Source: Candidatus Hydrogenedentota bacterium
GTDB taxonomy: Bacteria > Hydrogenedentota > Hydrogenedentia > Hydrogenedentales > GCA-2746185
Reading direction: 5' to 3'
Assembly: GCA_030123645.1 (NCBI GenBank)
Contig: JASJYE010000001.1
Span: forward strand, 1 to 30,197
Length of the DNA: 30,197 bases
Shown: positions 1-30,189 of the stretch, piece after piece
Position numbering within the stretch: the stretch's first letter is position 1
How the letters are laid out: the number at the start of each line of letters is the position of its first letter
Notes under the pieces: generated by a model
The model's database searches: none
What the model saw: the letters and a program-made list of their open reading frames with translations, nothing else
Told to the model about the DNA's origin: nothing
Made by a program: the position numbers and the translations under genes

Positions 1-1235
1 TGATGGAAATGCAGGCTCTCGTCCAGGTAGGGATCCTTGAGCGGCACGAGCGGCCACCGGGCGAGCCCCTTGAGGATAACGAGCCCCACGGCGCCAATGG
101 CGCCTACAGTGATGCCGATTTCGGGAATGCCTAAGACGGGGGCGTCGGATGAAATGCTGGGAAATACTTGCAAATAGAGATCCAACCAGCGCCCGAGGAG
201 GACCACCACGGCGACTTTCACCATGAGGTCGTCGCTTCGCTTGACCCCTCTTGGCATAAGAATGATAAACGGCACGAGCCAGTTGAGGACGAGGTTGAAG
301 ACGAAGAGGGGCCCCCACATGCCGCTGACGCGAGTGATGAAATACTCGGTCTCCTCGGGGAGGTTTCCGTACCAAATGAGCAGATACTGGCTGATCCAGA
401 TGTATGCCCAGAAGATGCTGAAACCGAAGAGAAGCTTGCCGAGGTCGTGAAGGTGGTTTTCGTTCACGATGCCGCGCAAGACGCCTTGGCTTCGAAGCCA
501 CACGACGACGATAATGACGCCGGCGAGGGAACTCGTGCAAATGCCGGCAAAGTGGTAGACGCCGAAAATCGTGCTGAACCAGTGGGGCTCGAGGGACATG
601 AGCCAGTCAAAGCTGGACAGCCAGACCGTTAGGGCGAAGAACACCAGGAACGCGGCGGAAAGCGCGACGTTCTTGCGCGTGTGGCTCTGCTTGCCGTCGA
701 TATCTTGCTCGCGCGAATGACGGAGAATAACCGTGGCGAAGGCGATCCAGATGGCCACGTAGACGACGGCCCGGAACAGGAAGAACCCACGGTCCAGCCA
801 CATGGCCTTGAATCCGGTGAAATGGTCTCCCACCTCGCCAAATGCCGGGTAGAGCGAGGGCCGGAAGACGAGGACCAAGCCGATGCCGAGGGCGGCGATG
901 GGCAGCAACCCCGCGAAGGCCTCGGGGATTCTCCGTAATACGACGCCCCAGGCCGCGGTAGTGACATAGAGCGAGGCGACGAGAAAGAGGCCGCCGAGCG
1001 CCAGCCCAATCAGGTAGGTGCTGTTCATGAGCACGCTGCCCCACAGGCGTTGCGGCGCGAGGAAAAGTTCCACCACGAATACCACGGCCCCAATCGCGAC
1101 GAAGGCCTTGTACATGTCGAGCGTGCGTGCCGGCGGACTAAAGTTTCGAATCGAATCGGACGCCAAGCGTCGCGCCACATCGGATTCGTGACGGGCGTCT
1201 TTTCCGTCAAGGCTTTGTAAAGCTGTCTCGCTCAT
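1..1235 (-). CDS. actF: Alternative complex III membrane subunit ActF (3' end just outside window)
   Basis: Absent from the ORF track (no stop in window); translated by hand from ATG 1235, which overlaps the actE stop (ATGA): MSETALQSLD...; open to the window edge (>=411 codons). Contains FDWLMSLEPHWFSTIFG, HDLGKLLFGFSIFWAYIWISQYLLIWYGNLPEET and C-terminal PLKDPYLDESLHFH, typical of ActF; multi-TM. Confidence 0.93.
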   Translation of the reverse strand, partial: MSETALQSLDGKDARHESDVARRLASDSIRNFSPPARTLDMYKAFVAIGAVVFVVELFLAPQRLWGSVLMNSTYLIGLALGGLFLVASLYVTTAAWGVVLRRIPEAFAGLLPIAALGIGLVLVFRPSLYPAFGEVGDHFTGFKAMWLDRGFFLFRAVVYVAIWIAFATVILRHSREQDIDGKQSHTRKNVALSAAFLVFFALTVWLSSFDWLMSLEPHWFSTIFGVYHFAGICTSSLAGVIIVVVWLRSQGVLRGIVNENHLHDLGKLLFGFSIFWAYIWISQYLLIWYGNLPEETEYFITRVSGMWGPLFVFNLVLNWLVPFIILMPRGVKRSDDLMVKVAVVVLLGRWLDLYLQVFPSISSDAPVLGIPEIGITVGAIGAVGLVILKGLARWPLVPLKDPYLDESLHFH

Positions 1236-1888
1236 AATTGACTTTCTTCGCTCCCGGACGCGTTCTGATACGAGGCCGGACCTTCCGGCGCCGTCTCGTT
1301 GGCATTGCGCTCCAGTTTGGCCGCTTCTTTTTCTTGAAGGGACCGAATATGCAGGATAACTTTCCAGCGGTCCTCCGGGGAAACCTGGGCCGCATAGTCG
1401 GGCATGTTTCCCTGACCGTAGGTGATGACATGGAAGATCTGGCCATCCTTCATGTTCAAGCTGTTTTCGGCGAAAAGGGACGGCGGCGGCGGATACCCGC
1501 GTCTCGCCACCGGGCCGTCTCCCCGTCCGCCGGGCCCGTGACAGGGGATGCAGAAGGTGGCATAGACTTTCGCGCCTCTCTGCAAGAAGTCTGCCTCGGC
1601 GGTGAAGAGGTTTTGCAACTCGTTTCCCGCCCGCGCCGCGTCTTCGGGCGTTGCGGCGTAGTGCAGCGGCATGTGGCCCCGCGGAATGGTTCCAGGAATT
1701 GGCGCTTGCAGGGTCTTGCCGTCGGGAAAATGCTCGTTCACCGCGAAGGAATCGTATGGGATGGAGTAGAGCATTCCCGGCAAGAACTCGTAATTGGGCT
1801 CTTCCGTATTGCCTCCGATCATCCAACTCACTACGATGAGAACGACGATGCAGGCCGCCAACATAGGATTAAGAAACGATTTGAGCAT
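1232..1888 (-). CDS. actE: ACIII monohaem cytochrome c subunit ActE
   Basis: Single CIPCH motif, distal Met in GNMP, PIPGTIPRG motif, N-terminal hydrophobic anchor; lies between actD and actF with overlapping stop/start codons. Confidence 0.9.
   Translation of the reverse strand: MLKSFLNPMLAACIVVLIVVSWMIGGNTEEPNYEFLPGMLYSIPYDSFAVNEHFPDGKTLQAPIPGTIPRGHMPLHYAATPEDAARAGNELQNLFTAEADFLQRGAKVYATFCIPCHGPGGRGDGPVARRGYPPPPSLFAENSLNMKDGQIFHVITYGQGNMPDYAAQVSPEDRWKVILHIRSLQEKEAAKLERNANETAPEGPASYQNASGSEESQL
1269..1288 (+). repeat. 20-bp CCGG-N5-CCGG repeat, copy in actE tail
   Basis: TACGAGGCCGGACCTTCCGG, 18/20 to TACGAGACCGGACGTTCCGG. Confidence 0.75.
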
Positions 1889-2415
1889 CAGTCGGTCTCC
1901 ACTTCGCGCTCTTCGATGTGAACTGCGTTAAAGCGTTCGCAAAGCTGTCTTACTTCGCCGGGATCGAAGGTGGCGTCGGATTCTTCGAGCAACAACGCGA
2001 AGCGGTCGTTGGTGATGCCGTCAAAGGGCAGATCGGCCTCTTTGCCCGGCCACAGCCGCGCGCGCGCGAACAGGACAATGACGGTGCCCACGCCCGCGAA
2101 AAGGACGGCGAGTTCGAAAATGACGGGCACAAAAGCCGGAAGCGAATTCCAGGGCTTTCCGCCGACGTTGATGGGCCAGCTAACGGCCGAGGTCCAAAAG
2201 GCGAACCACGTCATGAACGTGGCCCCCGTCAACCCGAGCAGGAAGGCCACGATGGGCAGCCGCGACGTACGGAACCCGACGATGCGCTCCAGGCCGTGGA
2301 TGGCGTAGGGACTGAACACGTCGACGATGGTGAGGCCCTTTTGGCGGGCGGCCCCGACAACGCCGAGGATGTCTTCCTCGTGCTCGTAGACACTCATGAA
2401 TATGCGGCGGTTCAT
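1888..2415 (-). CDS. actD: ACIII subunit ActD (DUF3341)
   Basis: FSPYAIHGL, two TM helices around WPINVGGKP, PAFVPVIFELAVL, terminal D-RF-L motif; position after actC. Confidence 0.92.
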   Translation of the reverse strand: MNRRIFMSVYEHEEDILGVVGAARQKGLTIVDVFSPYAIHGLERIVGFRTSRLPIVAFLLGLTGATFMTWFAFWTSAVSWPINVGGKPWNSLPAFVPVIFELAVLFAGVGTVIVLFARARLWPGKEADLPFDGITNDRFALLLEESDATFDPGEVRQLCERFNAVHIEEREVETD

Positions 2416-2431
2416 GCCTGTGCTCCTTCGG

Positions 2432-3871
2432 TTACGAGACCGGACGTTCCGGCTGGCTGCCTATCGACGCGAGCTCTTCTTCGCCTTTCTCCGGCGTCGC
2501 TGAATCCGCCTTCGGGCGCGGCGGGCGCCCGTAACTCAGAACGCCTTTGAGCTCGGACATGGCGAGGACCGGCAGGAATCGGCAGAACAACAGGAAGGCG
2601 GTAAAAAACAACCCGAACGATCCCATAAGGGTGAGAATCTCGATGATGGTCGGCGAGTAGCCGGCCCAACTCGAGGGCAGGAAATCGCGGTGAAGCGAGG
2701 TCACGATAAGGACGAAACGCTCGAACCACATGCCAATATTGATGACGATTGATATGGCGAAAACGAAGCCAAGGTTGGTGCGCAACTTCTTGAACCAGAA
2801 CAACTGCGGGGAGATGACGTTGCAGGCGATCATGGTCCAGTAGGCCCAGGCAAAGGGCCCCAGTGCGCGGTTCTTGAACACGAAGGCCTCGTAGGGGTTC
2901 CCCGAATACGCCGCGGTAAAGAACTCGGTCAGATACGCCAAACCCACCAGACTGCCCGTCAGGATAATGATTTTACACATGGCTTCGACGTGGCGCACGG
3001 TGAAGTAGTTCTCGAGGGCCATGACCTTGCGTGCGATGAGCATGAGCGTGAGCACCATGGCGAAACCGGAGAAAATGGCCCCGGCGACGAAGTACGGCGG
3101 GAAGATGGTCGTGTGCCAACCAGGAAGGATGGTCGCGGCAAAGTCCATGCTCACGATGGAGTGCACCGACAGGACCAAGGGCGTCGCCAAACCGGCCAGC
3201 ATGAGATAGACGACCTCGTAACGAACCCAAGTGCGGTACGACCCGTTCCATCCGAGGCTGAAGAAGCCGAAGATCTTTCGTCTCAGGCCGCGGGCGCGGT
3301 CGCGGATGGTGGCGAGGTCGGGGATGAGGCCCAGGTACCAGAAAACGAAGCTGATGGTGAAATAGGTCGAGATCGCGAAGGCGTCCCACACCAGAGGCGA
3401 CCGGAAGTTAATCCACAGCGGGCCCCTGAAGTTGGGATAGGGAATGTTGTAGAAGAAGAGCCACCACCGCCCCATGTGGATGAAGGGGAAGAGGGCCGCG
3501 CAGATGACCGCGAACAGGGTCATCGCTTCGGCGGCGCGGTTGATGGAGGTGCGCCAGCGCTGGCGGAAAATGAATAGGACGGCGGAGATGAGGGTGCCCG
3601 CGTGGCCGATCCCGATCCAGAACACGAAGTTGGTGATATCGAAGGCCCAGCCGACGGTTTTGTTGAGGCCCCACGTTCCGATCCCCGTCGCCATCTGATA
3701 GATCACGGCGATAACGCCTATGCCGAGCACGGTGGAAGAGGTTGCAAAGGCCATCCACCATAAGCGAGTGGGTTTCCCCTCAATAATTCCACAGACCTCG
3801 TCGGTCACGTCCGAGAGCGCCTTGTTCCCCAGGATTAGGGGTTCGCGCATGTTGGTATGATGGTCAGGCAT
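2432..3871 (-). CDS. actC: ACIII quinol-binding NrfD/PsrC-family subunit ActC
   Basis: [69 protein letters not shown]; about 10 TM helices. Confidence 0.96.
2433..2452 (+). repeat. 20-bp repeat, copy at actC 3' end
   Basis: TACGAGACCGGACGTTCCGG, identical to 5031-5050 and 5600-5619; encodes PERPVS and part of the TAA stop. Confidence 0.9.
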
Positions 3872-6800
3872 GGTGCTCTGTTCCTTCTCCCTCGCCGGTC
3901 TCCCGAGCCCGATTGCGCACGAGGGTGAGGTAGCCTACGGAAGGCCGTACGTTGAGTTCTTCGAGAACCTTGTAGTGGCGAGGACTCGCGAGAAGTCTTG
4001 CGATCTTAGAGTCGGGATCGTTCATATCGCCCATGACGAGGGCTTGCGCCGGGCAGGACTGTTGACACGCGGGTTGGACGCTTTCGTCCGACACTTTCAC
4101 GCCTTTGCGCCTCGCTTCGAACTTGGCCTCCTGAAGACGCTGGACGCAAAACGAGCACTTCTCCATCACGCCGCGGTCGCGCACGACTACGTCGGGATTC
4201 AGCGCCATGTTCTCCAGGGGATCGCGATTCTTGTTGTAGTTGAACCAGTTGAAGCGCCGCACCTTATACGCGCAGTTGTTCGCGCAGTAGCGCGTGCCCA
4301 CACAGCGGTTGTAGGCCTGCGCGTTCAGGCCTTCTTCCGTATGCACCGTGGCCAGCACCGGGCAAACGTTCTCGCAGGGGGCGTTGTCGCACTGCTGGCA
4401 CATCATGGGCTGGTGAAACACGTCCACGTCGTCGCCTTCCCCGGAGTAGTAACGGTCGATCCGCATCCAATGCATGTCACGGCGGCGGCGGACCTCGTCT
4501 TTGCCCACGACGGGAATGTTGTTCTCGGCCTGGCACGCGATGACACAAGCGCTACAGCCCGTGCACGCGCTGAGATCGACGGCCATGCCCCAGTGATGCC
4601 CCTTGTAGAGGTGATCCTCCGGATAGAGATCCTCGTCAAGGACGAGCGGGTGGAAGCGGCCCGACGACGGGTCTTCCTCGTAGGCGGCCAGTGTCGTTTC
4701 CTGAATAATTTCGCGGCGAAGGCCACCCGCCGGAGCGATATGTTCCGGCACGGTGATAAGGTGATAAGTTTGCGTGCACGCCAGCGGATGTTTCCGGCGC
4801 GTCTTCGCGATCTTGACGCCACTGCGTTCGAATCGCAACGCGCCGTCCTCTAGCGCAAGGAGCGGAGCGGCGTTCGCGCCTACCAGGCCGTCTTTGCCTA
4901 CGCTCGGCCGGGCCTGTATCCACGCCGGGCCGATGTCGGAGAAGCGGCGGGACACCGCGCCGCCGTAACCTAGCGCCACGGACACGACACGGTCGTGTTG
5001 CCCGGGCTGGACGTACACGGGAAGTTCCAATACGAGACCGGACGTTCCGGCGTCGCCGTCGCCGCCGGCGTCGATTCGAATCACGTCTCCTTCGACCACG
5101 CCGAGTTGGTCGGCAGCGGCCACGGAGAGATTCGCGTAATTGTCCCACGTTACCTTGCTGATCGGATCAGGCAGTTCCTGCAGCCACGGGTTGTAGGCGT
5201 GGCGTCCGTCGCCCAGACTGACCTTGGGGTAGAGGACAAGGGTATACGCCGACTCGTCCGATGCGTCGGCGCTGGTGATGAGGCTGACCGCGCTTTCATT
5301 GAAGCTTCGGGCCGGCAGCGGCGCGGACTCGATGGTCGCATATCCGTCGTGAAGCGACTTGTCCCAGAAGGCCACGAACGACGCGCTGCCGCTGCTCGCG
5401 GGATAGACTTCGCGCTCCCAGCGCTGCCGGAGCGCGTCGTAGGCCGATTGCGGCGCGCCTGACCACGTATTGAGGCTCTCAATCAACGCACGCGAATTGT
5501 TAAGCGGGCGGATCACGGGCTGCATAAGGCTGACGCGGCCATGGACCGCTTCCGCGTCGCCCCAGGATTCGAGGAAGTTATGGTCGGGGCACACGTACTT
5601 ACGAGACCGGACGTTCCGGGCGCGGGCGCTCGTTTCGTCGGGCCGCTCCGCAAAACTCACGACGAGGCCAACGCGGTCCAGGGCCTCGCCCATGGCCGCG
5701 CCGCCCGGAAGGTCGTAAACCGGATTGGCGCCGGCCACAAAGACGGCGTCGATCTCTCCTGCCTGGATTTCCTCAAGAAACTCGGCCAACTCGGCATCGT
5801 TTCCTTGTTTCTGATAGGAGGGTCGCTCGATGTCGACGGTTTCTCCGTAGTTTTCCAATAGATGATTCAGGTAGTTGCACAAGATCTGATGCTGAACATC
5901 TTGACTGCCGCAAATGACCAGACTGCGGCCTTTGGCACGCCAGAGTTCCTCGGCCAGCTCCTTGAGGACCACATCCGATACCGGAGGCTCTTCGAATCCC
6001 GAATACCAAACCGGTGGTTCCGGTGCCTCGACGCCGGTTCCCGCCATGCGGGCCACGCGCGCGGCCAAGTGGCTGAGGACCAGCCCTAGTTCCTCCGGCG
6101 CGATGCGGTAACGGTTGTCGGCGTTGGAGCCTGTGAGAGTCATGCGAGACTCGAATTGCACGTGCCGGGAGAAATGACCGGAACCACCGCTTTGGTATAT
6201 GGAATCGCCATCGAGAACGCGGCCCGCGCGGTAGCCTGCGGTATACCCGACGGGGTCGATCCAAGTTCCAAGGAAATCGGCATCGAAGCCGGCAATCACC
6301 TGGGCCTTTGAGAAGTCATAGTGCGGCAAGACGCGCAGACCGTGGGTCTTCTCGTGGGCATCGAGAATCGCCGAGGAGGACAATGCGTCGTATGTGATGT
6401 GCTTTGCGTCCGAAAAGGTATCGAGGAAGCGCGCGATGGCCGCCCGGGTCGTCGGACTGACCACGGTGCCGGTCACGAAACGCACGGAACCGCCCGTGCT
6501 GCGCAGCCCTTCAAGCGACGCCGTCAGGGATTGGTCGATTTCCTCCCAGGTTGCGTCTAGCAAAGCGGAGGTTCCGGCGTCGCCGACTTTAGGGCCCGCG
6601 TACCGGTGGCTGTCGTACAGACCCAGGAGCGCGGCCTGTCCTTTCGCGCACAGGCCGCCTTTGGAAAGGGGATGGCCCGGATTGCCCTCGAGCTTGATAG
6701 GCCGTCCGTCGCGGCTCTTTATCAGCGCACCGCAGGCCGACTCGCACGCGCCGCAAACCGAGGCGTAATAGACGGCGCGTCCAGCCACCACGCCCTCGGG

Positions 6801-7031
6801 CTGAATAATATGCGGAAACGCGTTCCGAATCGGCGCCCTGCTGCAGCCGGCCGCGGCCACGGCGCCCGCGATGGTGAAACCCGCCGCTTTGAGAAAGCTT
6901 CGACGGTCGACGTGACCAGGCGGCTCTTCCATCCATTGCGAAAGGTCGTGCTCATCCGAGGTGGGCGCGCTCGCGCCATCCTTGGGTGGCCGCGAACTCT
7001 GCCAATACTGCTTTGTAGATTCCTTCGACAT
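3864..7031 (-). CDS. actB: ACIII subunit ActB (molybdopterin-oxidoreductase-like domain fused to NrfC-like Fe-S domain)
   Basis: Tat signal DRRSFLK followed by lipobox AAGC; [16 protein letters not shown]; C-terminal Fe-S motifs [40 protein letters not shown]...CQQSCP; 1055 aa. Confidence 0.95.
5031..5050 (+). repeat. 20-bp repeat, copy in actB
   Basis: TACGAGACCGGACGTTCCGG; read as AGTSGLV. Confidence 0.9.
5600..5619 (+). repeat. 20-bp repeat, copy in actB
   Basis: TACGAGACCGGACGTTCCGG; read as ARNVRSRK. Confidence 0.9.
6004..6023 (+). repeat. 20-bp repeat variant, copy in actB
   Basis: TACCAAACCGGTGGTTCCGG (16/20 to the main variant); exact reverse complement of 30170-30189; read as PEPPVWY. 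Confidence 0.85.
6178..6197 (-). repeat. 20-bp repeat variant, inverted copy in actB
   Basis: CCGGAACCACCGCTTTGGTA, 19/20 to the reverse complement of 6004-6023; read as YQSGGSG. Confidence 0.85.
6558..6577 (+). repeat. 20-bp repeat variant, copy in actB
   Basis: TAGCAAAGCGGAGGTTCCGG, 18/20 to the reverse complement of the 6178 copy; read as AGTSALL. Confidence 0.7.
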
Positions 7032-7054: not shown

Positions 7055-7738
7055 CTAATAGTGGCACGTGGTGCAATCTATTGGAGCGTGGACCGGCTTG
7101 GCATTCACGCCGATCTCACTGTATTTACGATGGCAATTGACACACCAGCCCATGGCGAGCGTTTCCACCTGACGAATGCGCTCCATCGTCTCGACGTTGC
7201 CGTGACACTTCTGGCATTCCAAGCCCACGTTCACGTGGGGGCGGTGATCGAAATAGACGAAGTCGGGGAGATTGTGGACCTTGACCCAAGGCATGGGTTC
7301 CATAGAATCCGCCTTGGCCGGCGTGACCTCCAAGGGATTCCAGGCGGCGATGGCCTCGGCCCCCTCGAGACCGAGCGTGGCATAGAGCTTCTGGAGTTCA
7401 TCGGAAATGACCGGCTGCACCGGCCGGTCCTCTTCGGTCGCGGTGCGGTCTTCGGCCTGCATGGCGCCGAAGGTCGAGGTGACGAACTTGTGGCAGTTCA
7501 TGCAGACGCTGGTGGCCGGGATGCCCGCGTGGCGGCTGGTCTCAGCGCCGGAGTGGCAGTACTGGCAATCGATGCTCATCTCCCCCGCGTGAAGCCGGTG
7601 CGAAAAGGCGAGGGGTTGTGTTGGCGCATAATCCTGGTGGTTTCCCACGAGATGAAAGGATTGCGCCCTGATGGTGACGCCGAGGACGCCCAAGGCCACG
7701 CCGGTAAGTAGAAGATAAGTCCAGATTTCTTTGGTCAT
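7055..7738 (-). CDS. actA: ACIII pentahaem cytochrome c subunit ActA
   Basis: Five CxxCH motifs (CQYCH, CMNCH, CQKCH, CVNCH, CTTCH), FSHRLHAG, LPDFVYFDH, one N-terminal TM. ATG 7738 preferred over TTG 7753 because GAGG lies upstream of it. Confidence 0.94.
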   Translation of the reverse strand: MTKEIWTYLLLTGVALGVLGVTIRAQSFHLVGNHQDYAPTQPLAFSHRLHAGEMSIDCQYCHSGAETSRHAGIPATSVCMNCHKFVTSTFGAMQAEDRTATEEDRPVQPVISDELQKLYATLGLEGAEAIAAWNPLEVTPAKADSMEPMPWVKVHNLPDFVYFDHRPHVNVGLECQKCHGNVETMERIRQVETLAMGWCVNCHRKYSEIGVNAKPVHAPIDCTTCHY

Positions 7739-7746
7739 GACAACCC

Positions 7747-9360
7747 TCAGCAACTAATTTCCGCGTTCTTGCGGGCGTAGTACCACCAGTTGAGCGCGAG
7801 ACACGTCAGGTAGTAGACAGCGAATCCGTAGAGCGCGTACTGCGGCGTACCGGCTTCGATTTGCGTAGCAAAGATCTTGGGAATCAGAAAAGCGCCGTAA
7901 GCCGCCACCGCCGAGGTCCACCCAAGAACCGGCCCGGCCTGCTTACTGTCGAAAATAACGGCGATCATGCGGAAGGTCGAACCGTTCCCGATTCCCGTCG
8001 TGGCGAAGAGCAAAATGAACAGCCCAAGGAAGGGCAGAAAATACTTCTCAGGGGTTAGCGACACGTTCGCCAAGGCCACGACATATCCGCACGCCACCGC
8101 GGCGCCGATCATGACGATCGTGTCCCAATGGGTCACGCGCGCCCCCCCAAGCTTGTCGGAAAGTAAGCCGCCCAGAGGCCGGATGGCCGCTCCCATGGCC
8201 GCACCCAGGAAGGCGAACTTGAGGATGTCCGGCGCGTTGGGATTAACGATGGCTTCGGCGAGTTCCAGGCCGTTTTCGTCCACGCGGATGTAACCGAAGA
8301 CGTCCTTCAGGAGTTTCGGAAACGCGTTGGAGAACCCGATGAACGATCCGAAGGTCATCACATAGAGATAGGTCATGATCCAGTTGTGCTTGTTGCCGAA
8401 GATGGCGAACTGGCCGACGAGGTTGTCTTTCGTCTCTTTCGGCGTCAGGAAACGCATGAAGAACAGCGTGCAACAAATCGCGATGATGAGGATCACGAAT
8501 ATCTTTATCAACTCGGGGAATCCGCCCCACGGCACTATCAGCAAGGCGATGGCGATGGTGGCGCCCATGTAGCCCAGCAGTTCCAGCCACAGGTACTTGC
8601 CCACGGCCACGGACGTGGGCCCGCACTTGTGCTGGGGCAGGTTGTTCATGAACATCCACGCCAGGACGCAGAAGAACGCTAGGACCGGCACCCAGATAAG
8701 CCCCGCGTTGTGAATGTAGATTTCTTTGTCCCCCAGCGACCGGGGGTCGCCGCCGAAGATCCCGACGGTGATGATGAAGGGGATTGTCAATTGCATCACG
8801 GCGACGCCGAGATTCCCCAGGCCCGCGTTCAGACCGAGCGAGAGCCCCTGAACGCGTTTGGGGAAAAAGAAGCTGATGTTGGACATGGAGGACGCGAAGG
8901 CGCCGCCGCCAATGCCGGACAAGGCCGCCAGCATGATGAACACCAGAAACGGCGTGTCGGGATTCCTCAGCGCCAGCCCCGTCCCCAACGCGGGCAGAAT
9001 CAGCAGCAGCGTCGTCATGCCCTTGACATTGCGCCCTCCGCAGATGGCGATCATGAAGGAATTCGGGATGCGCGTCGTAGCGCCCGCGAGCCCCGCAACG
9101 GCCGGCAGGGTATAAAGCAACGCCTTGTACGCCGCTCCCGTGATCGCTTCGCCGCCGTTCCCGAATGAGAATGCGAACAAACTGCCGTCCACGTCATGGA
9201 GGCCCTGCATCAGGCCGACGATTACGCCCCAATAAATCCAGACGGCAAAGGCAAGCAGCAGGTTCGGGATGGAAATCCAGAGGTTACGGTACGCCACCGA
9301 TTTCCCTGTTTCTTCCCAGAACTGTTCGTCCTCTGGGTCCCACCGTTCAGGTGCTTTCAT
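7747..9360 (-). CDS. narK: NarK2-type nitrate/nitrite MFS transporter
   Basis: FWEETGKSVAYRNLWISIPNLLLAFAVW; nitrate signatures GIGGGAFASSM and GIGNGSTF; conserved Args (TTRIP, AIRPLGG). Confidence 0.92.
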   Translation of the reverse strand: MKAPERWDPEDEQFWEETGKSVAYRNLWISIPNLLLAFAVWIYWGVIVGLMQGLHDVDGSLFAFSFGNGGEAITGAAYKALLYTLPAVAGLAGATTRIPNSFMIAICGGRNVKGMTTLLLILPALGTGLALRNPDTPFLVFIMLAALSGIGGGAFASSMSNISFFFPKRVQGLSLGLNAGLGNLGVAVMQLTIPFIITVGIFGGDPRSLGDKEIYIHNAGLIWVPVLAFFCVLAWMFMNNLPQHKCGPTSVAVGKYLWLELLGYMGATIAIALLIVPWGGFPELIKIFVILIIAICCTLFFMRFLTPKETKDNLVGQFAIFGNKHNWIMTYLYVMTFGSFIGFSNAFPKLLKDVFGYIRVDENGLELAEAIVNPNAPDILKFAFLGAAMGAAIRPLGGLLSDKLGGARVTHWDTIVMIGAAVACGYVVALANVSLTPEKYFLPFLGLFILLFATTGIGNGSTFRMIAVIFDSKQAGPVLGWTSAVAAYGAFLIPKIFATQIEAGTPQYALYGFAVYYLTCLALNWWYYARKNAEISC

Positions 9361-9443
9361 CGTGTTTTCCGCTCTTCGGTTTTACTTCGATCCACATTAG
9401 ACTGCTTACACGCCCACATTTCCCGCGATTTTTCTCATTCCCT

Positions 9444-10946
9444 CTAACGTTCAATCTCTTCGATCTGGCTTACTACCTCGGGCGCCGCTTTGCGCATCAT
9501 CCGTTGAATCACCGCGTGCATCCACCACAGACATACGCAGCTGAGCACGGCGAAGAACATCCAGCACGTGGTCCACAACCCGGTTCCCTCGAGCATGTAG
9601 CCGAAGAGGATCGGACAGAAAAAACCGCCCAGTCCGCCGACGACCCCCACGATGCCGCCGACGACGCCGACCTCATCGGGAAAATACTCGGGGATATGTT
9701 TGTACACCGCCGCCTTGCCGATGCCCATCATGATCCCGATAACGAACACCAGGGCCGTGAACACCCAGACGTTGGCCTGGAAATAGATGTGGGTCACGCC
9801 GCGCGCGATGAGCTGCTTCTTGGCAATCTCCTGGCCCACTTCGACAATGGGCTCTTGCCACGAAGCGCTCTTCGGCCAGATGAGCGTGTCCGAGTTCTTC
9901 TGCTCCTCCGTGAGCGTCGTTCCCGTTGCGCCCCGCACCGCGTAACTCTTGTCGCCCACGACTATTTCCGTGTCTGACACAGACGTGACGGTGCCGCCGG
10001 CCTTGGCCATGATGCCTCGTCCGGGAGATTCCACGTCCATGCGCGGGATAATCAGCAGCGCCGCACTGATGGCGATCGATCCCAGCACCCAGTACATGAC
10101 GCGCCGCGCGCCCAACACGTCCGACATCCAGCCGCCGAGGGCGCGAATAACGCCGGATGGTAGGCTGAATATAGCGGCCATGAGGCCAGCTGTCGCCACG
10201 CTCATTGCGTAGGCGTTCACGTAGTAGGGGATGAGCCACTGGGCCAGCGCGACGAATCCGCCGAACACCAGGAAGTAGTAGAGGCCGAAGCGCCACACGC
10301 GCACATGCCTGAGCGGGGAAAGCCGTTGCGCGAAGTTCGTGATGTGAGAGTCGTCCACCTTCTTCGAATGGGCGAAGACGGCAAACACGATGGCCATGGC
10401 CAGCAACATGCCCGCGTACAGCTTCGGCATGGTCCGCCACGCCTCGATGTTTTCACCATCGTTCGTCAGCCGCGCGAGCAGTTGAGGCGCGAAGATACTC
10501 GTTAACGCAGCCCCCGCGTTGCCGGCGCCGAAAATCCCCAAGGCCGTGCCTTGCCGTTCCCTCGAGAACCACACGGAGGTGTACGCAATACCCACGGCAA
10601 AAGACGTCCCCGCGATGCCGAAGCCGAGGCTGCAGAAGAAAAACGCCCAGTAACTGTCCATCATGCTCATGAGATACATGGGTACGGCCGAGATAAGCAT
10701 CACCCCCGTAAAGACAATGCGGCCGCCGTATTTGTCGGTGAGAATGCCCACTGGAAGGCGAATCAGGGCGCCGCTCAACACGGGTATCCCGATGAGCCAG
10801 CCGATCTGCGATTCGGACCAGGTAAAGACCTGGTTTTCGACAAGGAAGGTGACCAACACCCCGTTGAGCATCCAGCACGCAAAGCACACGGTGAATGCCA
10901 CCGTGTTGAGCGTCAATACGCTAATTGCTCTCGCTTTGTCTTGCAT
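9444..10946 (-). CDS. narK: NarK1-type nitrate MFS transporter with ~90-aa loop insertion
   Basis: LNTVAFTVCFACW, LIRLPVGILTDKYGGR, GIAGTSFAVG, GAGNAG, GIGKAAVYKHIP, GGLGGFF. Confidence 0.92.
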   Translation of the reverse strand: MQDKARAISVLTLNTVAFTVCFACWMLNGVLVTFLVENQVFTWSESQIGWLIGIPVLSGALIRLPVGILTDKYGGRIVFTGVMLISAVPMYLMSMMDSYWAFFFCSLGFGIAGTSFAVGIAYTSVWFSRERQGTALGIFGAGNAGAALTSIFAPQLLARLTNDGENIEAWRTMPKLYAGMLLAMAIVFAVFAHSKKVDDSHITNFAQRLSPLRHVRVWRFGLYYFLVFGGFVALAQWLIPYYVNAYAMSVATAGLMAAIFSLPSGVIRALGGWMSDVLGARRVMYWVLGSIAISAALLIIPRMDVESPGRGIMAKAGGTVTSVSDTEIVVGDKSYAVRGATGTTLTEEQKNSDTLIWPKSASWQEPIVEVGQEIAKKQLIARGVTHIYFQANVWVFTALVFVIGIMMGIGKAAVYKHIPEYFPDEVGVVGGIVGVVGGLGGFFCPILFGYMLEGTGLWTTCWMFFAVLSCVCLWWMHAVIQRMMRKAAPEVVSQIEEIER

Positions 10947-11040
10947 ATGTGACGACCTCCAACCGTCGTCCTGCCGCCTGGGTCTTCGGCCCGATCCGTC
11001 CCCCTACAACTCCTTCAGCGCCGCGCCCTGCTACGCCGCG

Positions 11041-11715
11041 TCACTCGCCATACCAACGCACGACTTGCGGCTTACGCCAGAGGTAGGGGTTGGGGATGAC
11101 TAAGATATGTACGAGCCGCGTAAACGGGAAGAAACCGACAACGAGAAACGCGTTGATGATGTGCAACTTTATCAGCATAGGCATGCCCACGATGTAGCTG
11201 ATGTCGGGGTTGAAAATGAACAAGGAGCGCAAGTACGGCGTGAGCGAAGCCGCGAACCACGACGAGCCCCAGGGGTGAATCACGGCGATGGCAATACCGG
11301 TCACGACCTGGAAAACCAACAGGGCGTACAAGATAACGTCCGCCGGCGTGGACACTACGCGCAATTTCGAGTTCGTGAACCGGCGCACGATCATCGCGAT
11401 CAACCCCACGAGGGTCAGCACGGCGCAGGCCAGCCCGGTCACTTCGAGAAGGTAGAGGCGCATAGGGGCGCTGTTCCACGACAAGATGGCCCGCGGCATG
11501 AGAAAGGCCAACAGATGCCCGGCGAACACCGCGAGTATGCCGTAGTGAAAGGGCACCATGGCCCAGAAATGACGCTTGTTCTCGAGCAATTGCGTCGACA
11601 GACTCGAAAAGGTGAAGCTCTGAGAGCGGTAGCGCTGAATGCTCACGAGCAGCAGTGTGAACACCGCCACGTAGGGAAGCGCCGCAAACATCAATATGTC
11701 GAAATAGCTACTCAT
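11041..11715 (-). CDS. narI: Respiratory nitrate reductase gamma subunit (dihaem cytochrome b)
   Basis: Four haem-b His ligands in FHYGILAVFAGH and KLHI...PFTRLVH; five TM helices; position after narJ. Confidence 0.95.
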   Translation of the reverse strand: MSSYFDILMFAALPYVAVFTLLLVSIQRYRSQSFTFSSLSTQLLENKRHFWAMVPFHYGILAVFAGHLLAFLMPRAILSWNSAPMRLYLLEVTGLACAVLTLVGLIAMIVRRFTNSKLRVVSTPADVILYALLVFQVVTGIAIAVIHPWGSSWFAASLTPYLRSLFIFNPDISYIVGMPMLIKLHIINAFLVVGFFPFTRLVHILVIPNPYLWRKPQVVRWYGE

Positions 11716-12298
11716 GGTTGGCCTCCTTCAGAGCGAATACGCCCGAATAATCCGGTGGGTCCTCCTCGGCGGCCTCTTCGATGTATCGGCCGTACCGTGC
11801 TTCGAGCAAGTTCGCGATTCCCTGAATGAGGGGGCGGTAGGGGTTGCCCTTCTTGACCGCGCCCAGGATCTTGTCCACGGCGGGAACCAGACAACAGACG
11901 GCGAAACTGATTGCGTCCTCTTCGGACATGCGCCCGAGCACGCGCAACACGTTTGTGAGGTGATCGGGCAATTCCGTCGTTTCCGGAATTTTGAGACGCC
12001 GCATCTCGTTCCGTATCTTCACCATGTACAGCCCCCGGTTATACTCCTCGCCGAAGAGTTGCCAACCCGTATCGAGACTGCAAAGAGGATTGAGGTCGAA
12101 GGTTTGGATGTAACGCTCTTCCAGCTCGCTCAGCGACTTCCCCTCGATGCTGGCCATGAAGGCCTCGGCCTGTTCCACGACGGCCGGGGCCTCGACGGCG
12201 GCCATGTCCCGGTAGCGGAGCACCCGCTCGGCGTAGTCGCGTTCTGGGTAGGTCAATACGGCGGCCAGCGCCTCGCACAGTGTGTCGAAATCGCGCAT
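11708..12298 (-). CDS. narJ: Nitrate reductase Mo-cofactor assembly chaperone (delta subunit)
   Basis: Y-QTFD, GEEYNRG, ELPDHL motifs; between narH and narI with overlapping codons. Confidence 0.92.
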   Translation of the reverse strand: MRDFDTLCEALAAVLTYPERDYAERVLRYRDMAAVEAPAVVEQAEAFMASIEGKSLSELEERYIQTFDLNPLCSLDTGWQLFGEEYNRGLYMVKIRNEMRRLKIPETTELPDHLTNVLRVLGRMSEEDAISFAVCCLVPAVDKILGAVKKGNPYRPLIQGIANLLEARYGRYIEEAAEEDPPDYSGVFALKEANHE

Positions 12299-13788
12299 TA
12301 CAGTCCCCTCCTGGGCCCCGAGAGGAACCCGAAGCCCGTGCCCTGTTTGTGCTCCATGGGATCTTTCAGCGCCTCGATGGCCTCCTCACGATGGGCCGGC
12401 GGAATGACGAAGCGTTGATCGAAGGTACAAAGCGACGTGAGTTCGTAAATCGCCTGCGCCTCTTTGACGGTGCAATCGGCCTCTTTGAGCATTCGCTCTG
12501 CCGTTTCCAGATCGACGTCGCCTACCGTGACCGCCCGGCGATACCAACGCACGGACTTCTCCTTGCGCAAAGCGTAGAGCACCTTGCCTTCTTGGCCGCC
12601 GCCAAGCAGATTGCCCAAGAATTTCATCGGCACGCGCGCCTCTTCGATATCGTGGAAGAGGTTTTCGCTAATACTGTCCAGTCCCCCGGCTTTCTGCTGC
12701 GCCATGACCGGCGCCATGGGCGGCACATAAAACAGCATCGGAAGCGTGCGGTATTCGATATGCGGCGGCAGCGCCAGCTTCCATACCTTGACGTATTGAT
12801 AGACGGGCGACTCTTGGGCGGACTTGATGGTCGATTCCGCGATGCCGTTCTTCAGCGCATTCTCGATGACATGGGAATCATTCGGATCGAGAATCATGGA
12901 ACGCTGACCGTCGATAAGTTCCTCTTGCGGTAGATTGCTGACCTCTTCGATACGATCGGCGTCGTAGAGCAAGACGCCCAAATAGCGGATGCGGCCGACG
13001 CAGGAGTGGAAGCAGGCGGGAGCCTGACCCGTTTCAATACGGGGGAAGCATAGAATGCATTTCTCCGACTTCCCCGTGAACCAGTTGAAATATACCTTCT
13101 TATAGGGACAGGCCGCGATGCAGGAACGCCAGGCCCGGCAGCGCTTTTGGTCCACGAGGACGATGCCGTCTTCGCCGCGCTTATACAGTGCCCCCGAAGG
13201 ACATGACGCCACGCAGGCCGGGTTCATGCAATGGTTGCAGATCCGGGGGAAGTAGAAAAAGACCAGTTGTTCGATGGACATTAATTGAAGGCGCTGTTCC
13301 TTTGTGAGTCCTTCAAGGTTTGGATCGTTTGCCGCATAGATCGGCGAGCCGCCAAGGTCATCGTCCCAGTTGGGCCCCGATTCGATGTCGATGTACTCGC
13401 CCGTGACCATGGAGATCGGCTTCGCCGTGGGTTGATCGGGGCCTTCGGGCGCGTTAAAGAGATTCTGATAATCGTAGGTCCACGGTTCGTAGTAGTCGTC
13501 CATGCTGGGCATGTTCGGATTGTGGAAAATGTTCGGGATGATCCGCCCCTTGCCCGTGGATTTCAGGCGGATCTTGCCATTGTGCTTTTCCCATCCGCCT
13601 TTGAACTTGTCCTGGTCTTCCCACAGAGCGGGGAAGCCGGTCCCCGGCTTCGTTTCCACGTTGTTCCACCACATGTAATCGGTGCCTTTGCGGTCCGTCC
13701 AGATGTTCTTGCAGGCAATGCTACAGGTATGGCACCCGATGCATTTGTCAAGATGGAAGACCATGGAGATTTGAGAGCGCACATTCAT
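12298..13788 (-). CDS. narH: Respiratory nitrate reductase beta (Fe-S) subunit
   Basis: LDKCIGCHTCSIACK, WWNNVETKPG, CNHCMNPACVASCPSG, CRAWRSCIAACPYKK, EKCILCFPR...CFHSCVGRIR. Confidence 0.97.
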   Translation of the reverse strand: MNVRSQISMVFHLDKCIGCHTCSIACKNIWTDRKGTDYMWWNNVETKPGTGFPALWEDQDKFKGGWEKHNGKIRLKSTGKGRIIPNIFHNPNMPSMDDYYEPWTYDYQNLFNAPEGPDQPTAKPISMVTGEYIDIESGPNWDDDLGGSPIYAANDPNLEGLTKEQRLQLMSIEQLVFFYFPRICNHCMNPACVASCPSGALYKRGEDGIVLVDQKRCRAWRSCIAACPYKKVYFNWFTGKSEKCILCFPRIETGQAPACFHSCVGRIRYLGVLLYDADRIEEVSNLPQEELIDGQRSMILDPNDSHVIENALKNGIAESTIKSAQESPVYQYVKVWKLALPPHIEYRTLPMLFYVPPMAPVMAQQKAGGLDSISENLFHDIEEARVPMKFLGNLLGGGQEGKVLYALRKEKSVRWYRRAVTVGDVDLETAERMLKEADCTVKEAQAIYELTSLCTFDQRFVIPPAHREEAIEALKDPMEHKQGTGFGFLSGPRRGL

Positions 13789-13806
13789 GGGAAGCGATCC
13801 TTCTCG

Positions 13807-16800
13807 TTACCACTTAAGTTCGGGTAATTTGCGTACCATAATATGGGTGTCGCGGTTGCAGCCGATGGGACCCCAGTAATTGAAGTGATAGGTAAACTGT
13901 CCGTAACCGCCGGCCAGGAAATTGGGTTTGAGACGCGTCCGCGTCAAGCTGTTGTGGCCCCCCGCCCTGCGATTGTTGCGCAAGGGGGACTTGGGCACCG
14001 AGATGGTTCGCTCGGGCGAATGGTACTGAATGCACACCCCGGGAGGAATGCGCGCACTGACGACCGAGCGCGTCACCACCACACCGTGGTCGTTGTAGAT
14101 CTCTACCCAGTCGTTGTCGTTGACGCCGATATCGGCCGCGTCCTTGACGTTCATCCAAAGCGGTTCGACCCCGCGCGACAAGGTCGTCATCCGCTGGTTG
14201 TCGCCATAGGTCGAGTGGATGTGCCACTTTCCGTGAGGCGTCAAATAATTCAGCGTCTTCGTTGGCCCCTCTTCCTTGCTGAACTGCATGTCCGCATATT
14301 GGGTGGGCAACGGCTTAGGTTTGAAGGTGGGGAGATGTTCGCCAAATTGCAGATACATGGGATGATCAAGATAGAAATGCTGGCGCCCGGTGAGCGTTCG
14401 CCAAGGCACGAGCATCTCGACGTTGTAGGTGAAAGGGGAATAGGGACGGCCCTTTTCAATGAGGGCCGACCACATCGGACTGTTGATAAAGCGCTGGGGC
14501 CCGTTCTGCAGGCCCTTGTAAGTGGCGCGGACGGACCGGCTGTTCTCGGCCAGTTGCGCGAGCGGCAGACCGACTTTCTCCTCGATATTCTTGTACGAAC
14601 GGTAAGCCAACTCACCGTTGGTGACACTTGCGAATTCCAGGATGATGTTGCAGACGTCGGCGTCTTCCTTCAGCGAGAGGTAGCGATTATCATCCCATTC
14701 TTGAGTGGGAAGACTCTTCAGGGACTCTTCGTACAAATCGGCCACTTCGTAATGTGTGCCGTGCGCCCCCAGGCCCTTCTCCGAAACCAAGGGCCCCCAG
14801 GAAATGAACTGCTTATACAGATTCTTATAGTCGCGTTCGACGATATTCAGGTTGGGCATGGTCTTGCCCGGAATCGCCTCGCACTCGCCGGCCTGCCAAT
14901 CTTGCAGACTCGGCTGCGAAATCTCGGCGGGCGTGTCGTGGGCCAGGGGCGTGGCCACAAGGTCTTTGACCTTCTCCGGGAAATGGGTCTCGGCCAACTC
15001 GGAGAACTTCTTGGCGATGGCCTGAAAGATCTGCCAGTCGCTCTTCGATTCCCAACACGGCGGCACTGCCTCGGACAGCGGATGAATAAAACTGTGCAAG
15101 TCGGTCGAGTTCAGATCCGCCTTCTCGTACCACGTCGCCGCGGGCAATACGATATCGGAATACAACGCCGAGGTGTCCATCCTGAAATTGAGATCGACGA
15201 CCAGATCCATCTTCCCTTCAGGGGCGTTCTTGTGCCACTCGATCGTCTTGATGGTGTCCTCCGCCATGTCTTTGGCGATCATGTTGGTATGGGTGCCCAG
15301 GTAATGCTTGAGGAAGTATTCATGCCCCTTCGAGCTGGACATCAGGGCGTTGCCACGCCAGATGTACCACACCCGCGGCCAATTCTCCTCCGCGTCCGGA
15401 TCCTCGACGGAAAAGCGCGTCTCTCCAGATTTCAATTGGCCGACGACGTTCTGTATCACCTCCTCGTCGTTCTGAGCGCCGTTGGCTTCGGCTTCGGCGA
15501 CGATATCGATGGGGTTCTTGTTGAACTGCGGATAGAAGGGCATCCATCCGGAACGCACGGAGCGGGATTGCACCTCCATCGTGTGCCCCTTTGCCAGCGT
15601 GTCGGGCGGCTGATGGCGCGGCACCGTGTGATAATCCGTGAAGCTCTTCTCGTAACGCCACTGGTCCGTGTGCACATAGTGCCAACTGGGTGCGTTCTGC
15701 AACCGAGACGGCGGATACCAATCCTTGGCCATGGCCACGCTGCCCCAGGATTCCGCCGGCGCCAGTTTCTCCTGCCCGACGTAGTGGGCGAGCCCGCCGC
15801 CGTTTACGCCGACGCAGCCGCAGAACATCAGCGCGTTCATGCCGGCGCGGTACATCAGATTGCCGTGATACCAGTGGTTGATGCCGGCCCCGATGATGAT
15901 GATGCATTTGCCCTTGGTCAGTTCGGCGGTCTTGCCCCATTCGCGGGCAAAGCGGATGACCATGTCGCGGCTCATGCCCGTGTATTTCTCCGACCATGCG
16001 GGCGTGTACGGCGTATCGTCGTCATAGCTTTCGGGATAGGCGCCCTCGAGCCCGCGCACCACGCCGAACTGAGCCATCAAGAGGTCGTAGACCGTGGCCA
16101 CAAGAACCGTTTCGCCCGAACTCGTCTTGATCTTCTTCACGGGGACGCCGCGGTTTAGTTCGGTACCCTCTCCAAAATCGTCGAAATTGACCTGGACCAC
16201 GCAATCGTTTTCGTTCAGAAATGTCAGCGCCGGCGCAATCTTGCTGCCGTCCAGACCGTCTTCCAGTTTCAGGTTCCACTTGCCTTTTTCTTCGCCCCAG
16301 CGGAATCCGCCGCTCCCCATGGGCATTTTGGGCTTCTTCTCGTCTTCGTCCCACATCAGGAACTTCCAGTCGCCGTTCTCGATGCCGGTGTAGCCGTCGA
16401 GCCGGTTCGCACGAAGCAACTGCTCCGGACGATACACGCCTTTTTCGTCGGTTTCTTTCACCTCAACCAGCAGCGGGGAATCCGTGTAGCGTTTCACGTA
16501 ATCGATGAAATAGGGCACCTGGCGCTCGTGATGAAATTCGGTGAGCAGCACGTGATTGACCGCCATCCACCACGCGCCATCCTGCCCCGCGTTCAGCGAG
16601 ACCCACTCATCGGCATACTTGGCCACCTGGTTGAAGTCGGGCGCGAAAACCCACATCTTCGTTCCGTTGTGGCGTGCTTCCGCCGCGAAATGGCAATCCG
16701 GGGTGCGCGTCATATTGAGATTGGATCCCACGACCGCCAGCAACTTGGCGTTGTACCAATCCGCGGACTCGTGAACGTCGGTCTGCTCGCCCCAGAGTTC

Positions 16801-17454
16801 CGGCGAGGCGGTGGGCAAATCGCAGTACCAATCATAGAACGAGAGCGAGACGCCTCCCATGAGCTGCAGCATCCGCGAGCCGGCGGCGTAGCTAATCATC
16901 GACATGGCTGGAATCGGCGAGAATCCCGCAATACGGTCCGGCCCATGTTTCTTGATGGTATGAATATTCGCCGCCGCCATGATTTCAAGGACCGTGTCCC
17001 AACTGGCCCGGCGGAAGCCGCCCTTGCCGCGCGCCTTCTGCCAACGCTTTCGGGCCTCGGGGTTCTCCACCAGGGAGGTCCACGCGGCAACGGGGTCTTC
17101 ATGCTCCGCGCGTGCCTTTCGCCACAAGTCCAGCATGGCGCCCCGGATGTAGGGGTACTTCACGCGCAACGGGCTGTAGAGATACCAGGAATAGGAGATG
17201 CCGCGCTGGCAACCCCGGGGCTCGTAGGGCGGGAGGCCGGCCTCGAGTTCGGGATAATCGAGTTGCTGCATCTCCCACGTGACGATCCCGTCCTTCACAT
17301 AGATGGCCCAACTGCAGCCGCCCGTGCAGTTTACGCCGTGAGTGCTGCGCACTATTTTGTCGTGTTGCCAGCGATTCCGGTAGAACTCCTCCCAGCCTCT
17401 GAGCTTGGGATCGCATTCGTCTTTTATCCAGCTTATGGCGTTCTTAAATTTCAT
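13807..17454 (-). CDS. narG: Respiratory nitrate reductase alpha subunit (Mo-bisMGD, cytoplasmic NarG/NxrA clade)
   Basis: [13 protein letters not shown] (His/Cys FS0 motif), [10 protein letters not shown] (Asp Mo ligand), [24 protein letters not shown]; no Tat signal. ATG 17454 has GAGG upstream; GTG 17466 is the alternative start. Confidence 0.96.
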
Positions 17455-17462
17455 CGTTCGCC

Positions 17463-18335
17463 TCACAGTTTTTCGCTTTCAACTAAGGGCCGCCGTACGG
17501 CGAGGAAACGCCCCTTCCAAACAAAATCAAAGAACATCAGCGCCAACGCCGCCCCGCCAGCGCCCAGCAGCGCAAAGGTCAGTTGGGCTTGCGACTTTGC
17601 GGGCTTCCCCGCCTGGGCGCGATCCTCGAAAAGCGCCACCAGCGCGTGGATTTCGTCCGATTCCATCGCAGCAGCCTTAAACACAGAATTCATCGTGGGC
17701 GTGGCCGGCGCCATGAGCCATGAACTCAATACCGTGCGGCCCTGGAGCCGTTCGTAGACCAGGGTCAAATCGCCCCGTTCCGGATCGAGATTGCCGCCCC
17801 CCAAGCCCCCAAGGCCCGAAACCGAATGGCACGAATAGCACGCGGGCCCGCCGTTCTTCAGTTTTCGCGATCCCTTGAAAATCGCCAGGCCCCGCGCGAC
17901 GTCGGCGGCCGTAAAGGGCTCGTTCGAGATTTGAACGCCCTTGAATTGAGATTCCTCCAAGGCCGATTCCGCTTCGATGAGATCCAGCAGGTAGTCCGCC
18001 CGTTCGGGCGTTATGCCGGGTGGGATGGGCATCACAACCCCCCGGGCCTCGTCGAGCAGTTGAAGCGCGTACGGATCGCCTGCATCCATCTTGGCCTGCG
18101 GATTCAGTATGTACGACTTCAGCCATTCCCGATCCCTGCGCCCGGTGACGTCCTTGAGGTCCGGACCTGTCAATCGCCCGCCGCCGATGGTGTGACAGCT
18201 CGCACAATTCTGTTGGAAGTAGACAGCGGTTTCCTGGGCATTCGCCGGCATAGCGGCCAGCAGAACCATGACCGCCAAGCCTGCTCCGGCCCGCCCAAAC
18301 GATGTTCGCCGCGCCTTTTCACTCCATTTGTTCAT
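17463..18335 (-). CDS. narC: Periplasmic dihaem cytochrome c with C-terminal membrane anchor (Thermus NarC-like)
   Basis: Signal peptide ending AMPANA, CASCH and CYSCH, candidate distal Mets (VVMP, PTM), C-terminal TM; immediately upstream of narG. ATG 18335 chosen from the AGAGGA RBS; 18377 is the alternative. The symbol rests on architecture and position, not a search. Confidence 0.78.
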
Positions 18336-30169: not shown

Positions 30170-30189
30170 CCGGAACCACCGGTTTGGTA
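30170..30189 (-). repeat. 20-bp repeat variant, copy in right-edge intergenic region
   Basis: CCGGAACCACCGGTTTGGTA, exact reverse complement of 6004-6023 (21 bp including the flanking base). Confidence 0.85.

Follow-up and report, generated by a model that had tools for sequence, protein, structure and literature searches.

How does a single sequence of 20 nt come to lie seven times within the genes of one respiratory operon, translated there in one frame at one site and in another at the next? The question is raised by a 30,197-nt stretch of DNA (contig C300; hereafter the window, meaning the whole of this stretch) from a metagenome-assembled genome (MAG) of Candidatus Hydrogenedentes (G000; 2.93 Mb in 531 contigs, 83% complete), in which a 20-mer with the consensus TAC[G/C]A[G/A]ACCGG[A/T][C/G]GTTCCGG occurs eight times in total, seven of them within actB, actC and actE. 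Our answer is that the repeat very probably represents a genus-level family of very small non-autonomous mobile DNA elements with a basic unit of 20 nt. The unit opens with a conserved 7-nt head (TAC-S-A-R-A), and its remaining 13 nt (CCGG-N5-CCGG) make up a mini hairpin; as single-stranded DNA the unit folds into a hairpin stem of 4-5 bp with a 7-nt 5' tail. The exact A-type 20-mer is TACGAGACCGGACGTTCCGG and the B-type variant is TACCAAACCGGTGGTTCCGG; positions 4 and 13 covary across subfamilies (G-C in A, C-G in B and C). The exact A form is present three times in the window, with one further copy at 2 mismatches, where shuffled sequence is expected to yield 0.01 matches, and the hairpin core CCGG-N5-CCGG was observed 9 times against 2.1 expected. 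The copies in the window are as follows:

1269..1288, plus strand: A-type copy with 2 mismatches, in the C-terminal tail of actE, antisense reading PEGPASY; net insertion 21 nt
2433..2452, plus strand: exact A copy at the 3' end of actC, read PERPVS*; 29-nt out-of-frame change relative to the orthologue
5031..5050, plus strand: exact A copy in actB, read AGTSGLV; net insertion 18 nt
5600..5619, plus strand: exact A copy in actB, read RNVRSR; net insertion 18 nt
6004..6023, plus strand: exact B copy in actB, read PEPPVWY; net insertion 21 nt
6178..6197, minus strand: inverted B copy with 1 mismatch, in actB, read YQSGGSG; net insertion 21 nt
6558..6577, plus strand: degenerate B-like copy with 3 mismatches, in actB, read AGTSAL(L); net insertion 18 nt
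30170..30189, minus strand: exact B copy outside the act range, within a larger repeat that has 5 genome copies

The act genes themselves are placed as follows:

1232..1888, minus strand: actE, host gene, monohaem cytochrome c
1888-2415, minus strand: actD
2432..3871, minus strand: actC, host gene, NrfD-like
3864..7031, minus strand: actB, host gene, 1055 amino acids (aa)
7055-7753, minus strand: actA

An initial annotation of this DNA had reported the exact 20-mer at 2433, 5031 and 5600 and variants at 1269, 6004, 6178 (inverted) and 6558, and all seven were confirmed, as were the listed translations and the use of four of the six possible frames in the window; the exact B copy on the minus strand at 30170-30189 had been missed. 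Its view that the repeat is conserved as DNA and not as protein also holds. Genome-wide, copies are read in all six frames, none of which contains a stop. The 21-bp unit it had favored gives way to one of 20 nt: forms of 18 and 21 nt also occur, and 21 nt is merely one of the two lengths that survive in frame.

That the copies arrived by insertion is established by empty sites in relatives. The closest ActB outside the species (P0003; 76% BLASTP identity, 83% aligned amino-acid identity) is encoded on a contig of 620 kb where the gene order, nar-narK-narK-actABCDEF, is that of the window, and the 15-kb locus around it (L001) has no copy of the repeat. In a DNA alignment of actB to actE between the window and L001 (82.7% identity), L001 shows gaps of 18 nt at window positions 6576, 5618 and 5048 and of 21 nt at 6197 and 6023 in actB, a gap of 21 nt at 1284 in actE, and a gap of 29 nt at 2468 in the actC tail; the remaining gaps in the alignment are L001's own insertions (9, 15 and 165 nt), which coincide with no copy. 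All five ActB inserts are likewise missing from 15 of the 15 more distant ActB homologues aligned (55-67% BLASTP identity). Likening the repeat to a miniature Rickettsia palindromic element that invades open reading frames, as the initial annotation did, is thus borne out by homologues with clean gaps at every ActB and ActE copy. The 7-codon insertions expected there stand for these two genes, with lengths of 6 or 7 codons, but not for the actC tail, where the change is 29 nt and out of frame. The actC change is harmless because the element supplies the TAA stop (2432-2434), 17 nt before the actD start; its first two bases contribute the TA, as had been proposed.

In the proteins, the act copies add 6-7 small or polar residues to loops or tails, and the proteins concerned are under purifying selection. 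All five ActB copies lie in the QrcB/molybdopterin-like part (aa 152-666) and none in the Fe-S part (aa 814-1036). In a low-confidence AlphaFold model of ActB, none of the five inserts lies within regular secondary structure, and three of them match stretches with a local predicted local distance difference test score (pLDDT) of <50 (residues 253-286, 335-344 and 658-664); the 5031 insert forms a loop between two strands (local pLDDT <50), and the 6004 insert is in a low-confidence loop. Together with the copy in the actE C-terminal tail, these positions agree with the earlier expectation that copies occupy tails or ActB loops. The ratio of nonsynonymous to synonymous substitution rates (dN/dS) of ActB was 0.14 and 0.21, values which indicate that the protein has stayed under purifying selection. 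The act insertions date to the interval between divergences of dS 0.74 and dS 0.027.

Intragenic copies might also be assembly or binning artefacts of a repeat-rich metagenome, and the MAG is indeed very fragmented (531 contigs), with 72 of the 235 copies counted in it (see below) within 150 nt of contig ends; the repeat itself probably accounts for the fragmented assembly. However, an independently assembled MAG contig (L005, from GCA_022563875.1), 99.2% identical, with 44 substitutions and 0 indels over 5654 nt, carries all five ActB copies base for base, and the ActB copies are therefore not an assembly artefact, a possibility that the initial annotation had named as fatal to its proposal. 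Contigs from other metagenome projects also carry the family at orthologous sites, the host frames are open, and the dN/dS of 0.14-0.21 is that of a working gene, so that we give an artefactual origin practically no chance.

The order narGHJI-narK-narK-actABCDEF (window 7055-17466, compared with L001:1-6000) is the same in the repeat-free, 83%-identical relative, and nar therefore already lay beside act before the insertions. A late arrival of the nar genes, as the cause of their copy-free state, is opposed by this identical synteny in L001, as is the notion that the locus is a recent mosaic. The ActB of P0003 has in addition an insertion of its own, 55 residues long and with many Glu, Ala and Lys residues (L001:8300-8470; alignment columns 797-851), which is in no other homologue and is unrelated to the 20-mer.

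Beyond the window, copies were counted as matches with ≤3 mismatches to four consensus forms. The host MAG contains 235 (B, 130; A, 88; A2, 9; C, 8), many of them exact, against 1 match for the reversed patterns, which corresponds to a density of ~1 per 12 kb and supplies the genome-wide count that the initial annotation had called for. Although the assembly is 84% coding, 184 copies (78%) are intergenic, 47 (~20%) lie inside genes and 4 lie on gene edges, i.e., copy density per base is ~8-fold lower in genes. Tandem copies number 78; the period is 18 nt in 15 pairs, 20 nt in 27 and 21 nt in 4. The 20-nt period was found 26 times between genes and 0 times inside genes, where tandem pairs have periods of 18 nt (4) or 21 nt (1), plus one 17-nt overlap. 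Net insertions for which an empty-site reference exists follow the same lengths, at 18 nt (three), 21 nt (six) and 39 nt (one) in coding sequence and 20 nt (four) in non-coding sequence. With 20 nt between genes and 18 or 21 nt within them, a reading-frame filter is therefore visible.

The other host genes are ordinary and in many cases essential; among them are those for DnaK, a MurD-like ligase, the E2 and E3 components of a 2-oxoacid dehydrogenase, an acyl-CoA synthetase (with a 21-nt insert), an ABC ATPase, a zinc alcohol dehydrogenase, a GH3 enzyme and a histidine kinase, and all host reading frames remain open. The 7-residue insert of MurD (AGTCGLV) is missing from 6 relatives, and the 7-residue and 13-residue inserts of the ABC ATPase are both missing from 5. 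The gene for the latter, an ABC-transporter ATPase (C504:1906-2658), holds three copies with its frame intact, the 7-residue insert lying ~20 residues before the Q-loop strand IGMVFQ and the 13-residue double insert directly before it. In the dihydrolipoyl dehydrogenase (E3; C64:3-1016), the copies form in-frame arrays with an 18-nt period, (PTGGSG)x4 and (QTGGSG)x2-3, the second of which reaches the end of its contig. The act genes hold the genome's densest cluster, with 7 coding events in 6 kb; when 41 coding events were placed at random, the maximum in 500 runs was 3. Contigs C307 and C504 are likewise copy-rich, and copies are clustered overall (chi-square per degree of freedom of 2.5), which suggests local spread or regional susceptibility.

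Comparison with relatives also captured insertions outside genes. Three non-coding insertions in the host MAG (C430:4129, C138:352 and C138:4143) are empty in a relative, and one in a metagenome relative (L118:4230) is empty in the host MAG; the four gaps are each 20 nt, one of them aligned as 19 + 1. The same comparison gives a gap of 21 nt for the copy in the acyl-CoA synthetase gene. At three loci, orthologous copies are common to the host MAG and metagenome relatives. Common and one-sided copies together mean that the family is older than the species split and has been active since on both sides. No target-site duplication was visible at about nine empty sites. Among 91 solitary copies with unique flanks, base preferences were found at flank positions −4 (C, 67%, P = 3 × 10−14), −2 (A or T, 68%, P = 1.5 × 10−6), −1 (A, 64%, P = 9 × 10−25), +21 (C or T, 86%, P = 3.5 × 10−10) and +22 (G, 48%, P = 1 × 10−4), giving a preferred target of C-N-W-A|Y-G in which the left-flank C-N-W-A is preferred, not strict. 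Such bases pre-exist at several empty sites (TTCCAA|GG at 5031, TTCCATA|CA at 6197, CGTA|G at L118), and they therefore reflect target preference or junction microhomology and are not part of the element. A model with TA duplication (IS630-like) was ruled out, as the right flank carries no TA. It also seems unlikely, for essential genes, that a larger element was excised and left a lone 20-mer as its footprint.

The copies are also oriented. Within genes the TAC...CCGG strand is antisense in 30 events and sense in 11 (P = 0.004); the ratio is 16:9 between co-directional genes and 58:33 relative to the local gene majority (P = 0.011). Replication-strand bias, assessed via GC skew, gave no signal (45:41). 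Inverted neighbour pairs within 400 nt number only 10, at spacings from 34 to 380 nt, none of them fixed.

In its distribution the family is narrow. The 14-nt core occurs 130 times in the host MAG and 0-3 times in each of 40 relatives from the same family or order, which equals the level of the reversed-pattern control. A scan of one genome per species (185,579 species) returned 35 contigs with a single match and one contig with three. The single matches are at chance level, since ~35 are expected for 32 variants of the 20-mer in 596 Gb on both strands at uniform base composition. The contig with three matches (L031, JADFMZ010000425.1, 2.8 kb) is 92% identical to host contig C217 and is the sole repeat-bearing contig of its 'Planctomycetota' MAG; it is probably mis-binned, its likely source being a sister Hydrogenedentes species. 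The family is also carried by contigs from several other metagenome projects, 78-88% identical to the host MAG, and therefore belongs to a small clade of related species. A search of the literature on repeats in Hydrogenedentes found nothing relevant.

The initial annotation had offered as its alternative a protein-binding or uptake signal spread over the genome and merely tolerated in loops, to which a nucleoid or segregation protein site or an RNA hairpin may be added as candidates for selection. The orientation bias relative to transcription would fit such a signal, as would two orthologous copies (C430:3497 and C504:17949) that are identical over 20 nt between relatives 81-89% identical, although their flanks differ. 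Yet copies are whole insertions of 18-21 nt and not substitutions, are read in all six frames, are sparse (~1 per 12 kb), clustered and 8-fold depleted per base in coding sequence, and occur in tandem arrays and nested in other repeats. The hairpin is weak, moreover, and the family is missing from all 40 related genomes searched. A selected signal is accordingly improbable, and we return to a mobile family as the preferred reading.

As the comparisons show, new copies arise as clean insertions, without target-site duplication and preferentially at C-N-W-A|Y-G, and exist singly, as tandem arrays or nested inside other repeats. An intergenic insert measures 20 nt; in genes persistence is limited to inserts of +18 or +21 nt or to copies that lie at the very 3' end and supply a stop. 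The element itself appears to be selfish, or neutral to slightly harmful, and non-functional. Several points weigh against this account. The division into coding and non-coding copies rests on our own crude codon-usage gene caller; junctions are not placeable to the base at 82-87% identity; and the ActB model, with a mean pLDDT of 54, is low in confidence overall and was used solely for loop/non-loop assignment. The hairpin has an energy of −4.1 to −4.6 kcal/mol and is no better than those of shuffled sequences (z-scores of −0.9 to −1.6). No mobilising enzyme was identified in the host MAG and no Y1 gene adjoins a 20-mer, although in an 83%-complete genome such a gene may have gone unassembled. 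The only RAYT-like gene with both flanks assembled (on contig C122) is flanked by another repeat, the GGGGACAGTC family, and of 40 relatives lacking the 20-mer, 24 have RAYT-like homologues. The genes bracketed by 20-mers are ordinary ones (DUF72, DnaJ, aldolase, DUF456, GH2, ferredoxin and acyltransferase), with no nuclease or transposase among them.

Two routes of movement, Y1/HUH peel-and-paste in trans and template switching, are our leading candidates and appear to us about equally likely. On the first, for which we would argue only tentatively, the unit would be a minimal substrate resembling repetitive extragenic palindromic (REP) elements, and a RAYT or an IS200/IS605 TnpA acting in trans would move it as single-stranded DNA and insert it 3' of a preferred tetranucleotide without duplication. 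The absence of target duplication, the 20-nt length of non-coding inserts, the conserved C-N-W-A left flank and the architecture of head plus hairpin are all consistent with this, as is the orientation bias relative to gene direction (30:11 in coding sequence, 58:33 against the local gene majority), and covariation of positions 4 and 13 between subfamilies is what guide-target pairing would give. The genome also has three Y1-family genes, two RAYT-like (73.7 and 71.2 bits, under the NCBIfam cut-off of 80) and one partial IS200-like. Apart from the C122 gene standing beside a different repeat family and the lack of a Y1 gene next to any 20-mer, this route has against it the rarity of REPIN-type doublets (the 10 inverted neighbour pairs, without fixed spacing), the lack of GC-skew bias (45:41), and the variable unit length (18, 20 and 21 nt) and conserved right flank, which are unexpected for precise peel-and-paste. 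A RAYT or HUH gene flanked by the motif, which the initial annotation had envisaged, was not found in the host MAG, and tblastn of the RAYT and IS200 proteins against the metagenome loci gave no match. On C504, copies also bracket a 547-aa protein, which matches no family above noise and shows weak SMC-like coiled-coil matches.

It is equally conceivable, though again doubtful taken singly, that existing copies serve as donors in microhomology-guided template switching or templated break repair, the hairpin promoting polymerase stalling and junctions forming wherever 1-4 bases match the donor flanks. Here the conservation of both flanks and the variable net length find a place, and the most abundant donors have flanks (CCAA...CG) similar to the consensus C-N-W-A...Y-G. 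At 5031 the empty site already reads CCAA to the left and GG to the right (net 18 nt), the one at 5600 shares one or two bases (net 18 nt), and the local clustering (7 coding events in 6 kb, where simulation reached at most 3) points the same way. All four non-coding events, however, fit 20 nt, no direct trace of a switching intermediate was found, and we know of no case in which such a process spread a 20-nt sequence to hundreds of sites.

Repeats of this kind are already known (Rickettsia palindromic elements, REP elements and cyanobacterial small dispersed repeats): selfish ones within genes from Rickettsia and Wolbachia, very small mobile ones from cyanobacteria. The Rickettsia palindromic elements (Ogata et al. 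2000, 2002, as summarised in PMC10969869) measure ~100-150 bp and each encode a conserved peptide in one frame. Like these and the Wolbachia palindromic elements, the 20-mer is a dispersed selfish repeat that lies in frame in unrelated housekeeping genes and adds surface peptides while its hosts remain functional. In contrast to the Rickettsia elements, it is 20 nt long, a length indivisible by three; all six of its frames are read, and in genes it survives only in forms of 18 and 21 nt. It also comes from a different phylum and has no sequence in common with them. Closer in size are the small dispersed repeats of Nostoc and related cyanobacteria, reportedly described by Elhai and co-workers in 2008 (Genome Res 18:1484, cited in PMC3116915) as near-identical units of 21-27 nt in several subfamilies, which are said to be dispersed, nested in larger repeats and hairpin-capable and to have no known transposase. 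The likeness is one of behaviour only (small near-identical units, nesting, no transposase), without relation in sequence or taxon; the unit here is slightly smaller at 20 nt, and frequent in-frame insertion into essential genes and a frame filter are shown here.

REP and REPIN elements, mobilised with RAYT (TnpA-REP) transposases (Bertels and Rainey 2011, PMC3116915; PMC6006769), offer a further comparison. REP units are imperfect palindromes of 20-40 nt with a conserved 5' head, REPINs are inverted doublets of them at a characteristic spacing, and a cognate RAYT gene is flanked by the repeat. The 20-mer resembles them in its conserved head and, less clearly, in its hairpin, in its mostly extragenic location (78%), its hundreds of copies and lineage specificity, and the presence of RAYT-like genes in the genome, and differs in its stem of only 4-5 bp, the lack of regular inverted doublets, its ~20% intragenic copies, and the different repeat beside the RAYT-like gene whose flanks are assembled. 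IS200/IS605-type elements carry a hairpin at each end, greatly exceed 20 nt in length and insert beside a fixed target oligonucleotide on their 5' side, a Y1 enzyme cleaving and transferring the folded strand. With these peel-and-paste elements and their miniature derivatives the family appears to share the absence of target duplication, a preferred short target, a hairpin and a strand bias; it differs in its single hairpin, its variable unit length and its preference on the right flank as well. New here are the size of 20 nt, to our knowledge about the smallest for 'selfish DNA inside proteins'; a unit length that does not divide by three, together with a frame filter that can be seen directly; a target preference in the absence of duplication; and the density in one respiratory operon.

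The family offers a clean system for studying how elements of ~20 nt move, having hundreds of near-identical copies in one lineage, empty and filled sites in relatives, a measurable target preference and a visible frame filter. Essential proteins (DnaK, MurD and ActB) can gain loops of 6-7 residues in one step, which bears on the origin of indels in protein loops. A bolder suggestion, and one we put forward as a possibility, is that the 20-mer represents an undescribed class of 'nano-transposon', with a unit of 20 nt too small to have two ends that would be copied to C-N-W-A|Y-G sites without any element-encoded function, either by a host Y1/HUH enzyme acting on a single hairpin or by hairpin-driven template switching, in activity frequent and local enough to add seven loops or tails to one respiratory operon. 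If true, short loop insertions in bacterial proteins would have a general origin that has so far been overlooked. The repeat also matters for annotation and binning: it is the probable cause of the MAG's fragmentation, and it exposed L031 as a contig that is probably mis-binned.

Copies of the 20-mer are also nested in two other repeat families. One resembles miniature inverted-repeat transposable elements: a composite repeat of ~140-250 nt whose ends read TAGAGC[G/A]CTTTAAGT and whose interior has a long hairpin (for example, C14:1225-1475, C158:5306-5551 and C294:2957-3174). This repeat holds one to several 20-mers, their number differing between copies. The other is the REP-like GGGGACAGTC family (named by its core), with ~30-35 copies, seven of which carry a nested B-type 20-mer. 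In the window this family forms inverted arms of 62 nt (23415-23476 and 23606-23667), and on C122, at 3640-3815 and 4545-4575, it brackets the RAYT-like gene in a classical REP-RAYT arrangement.

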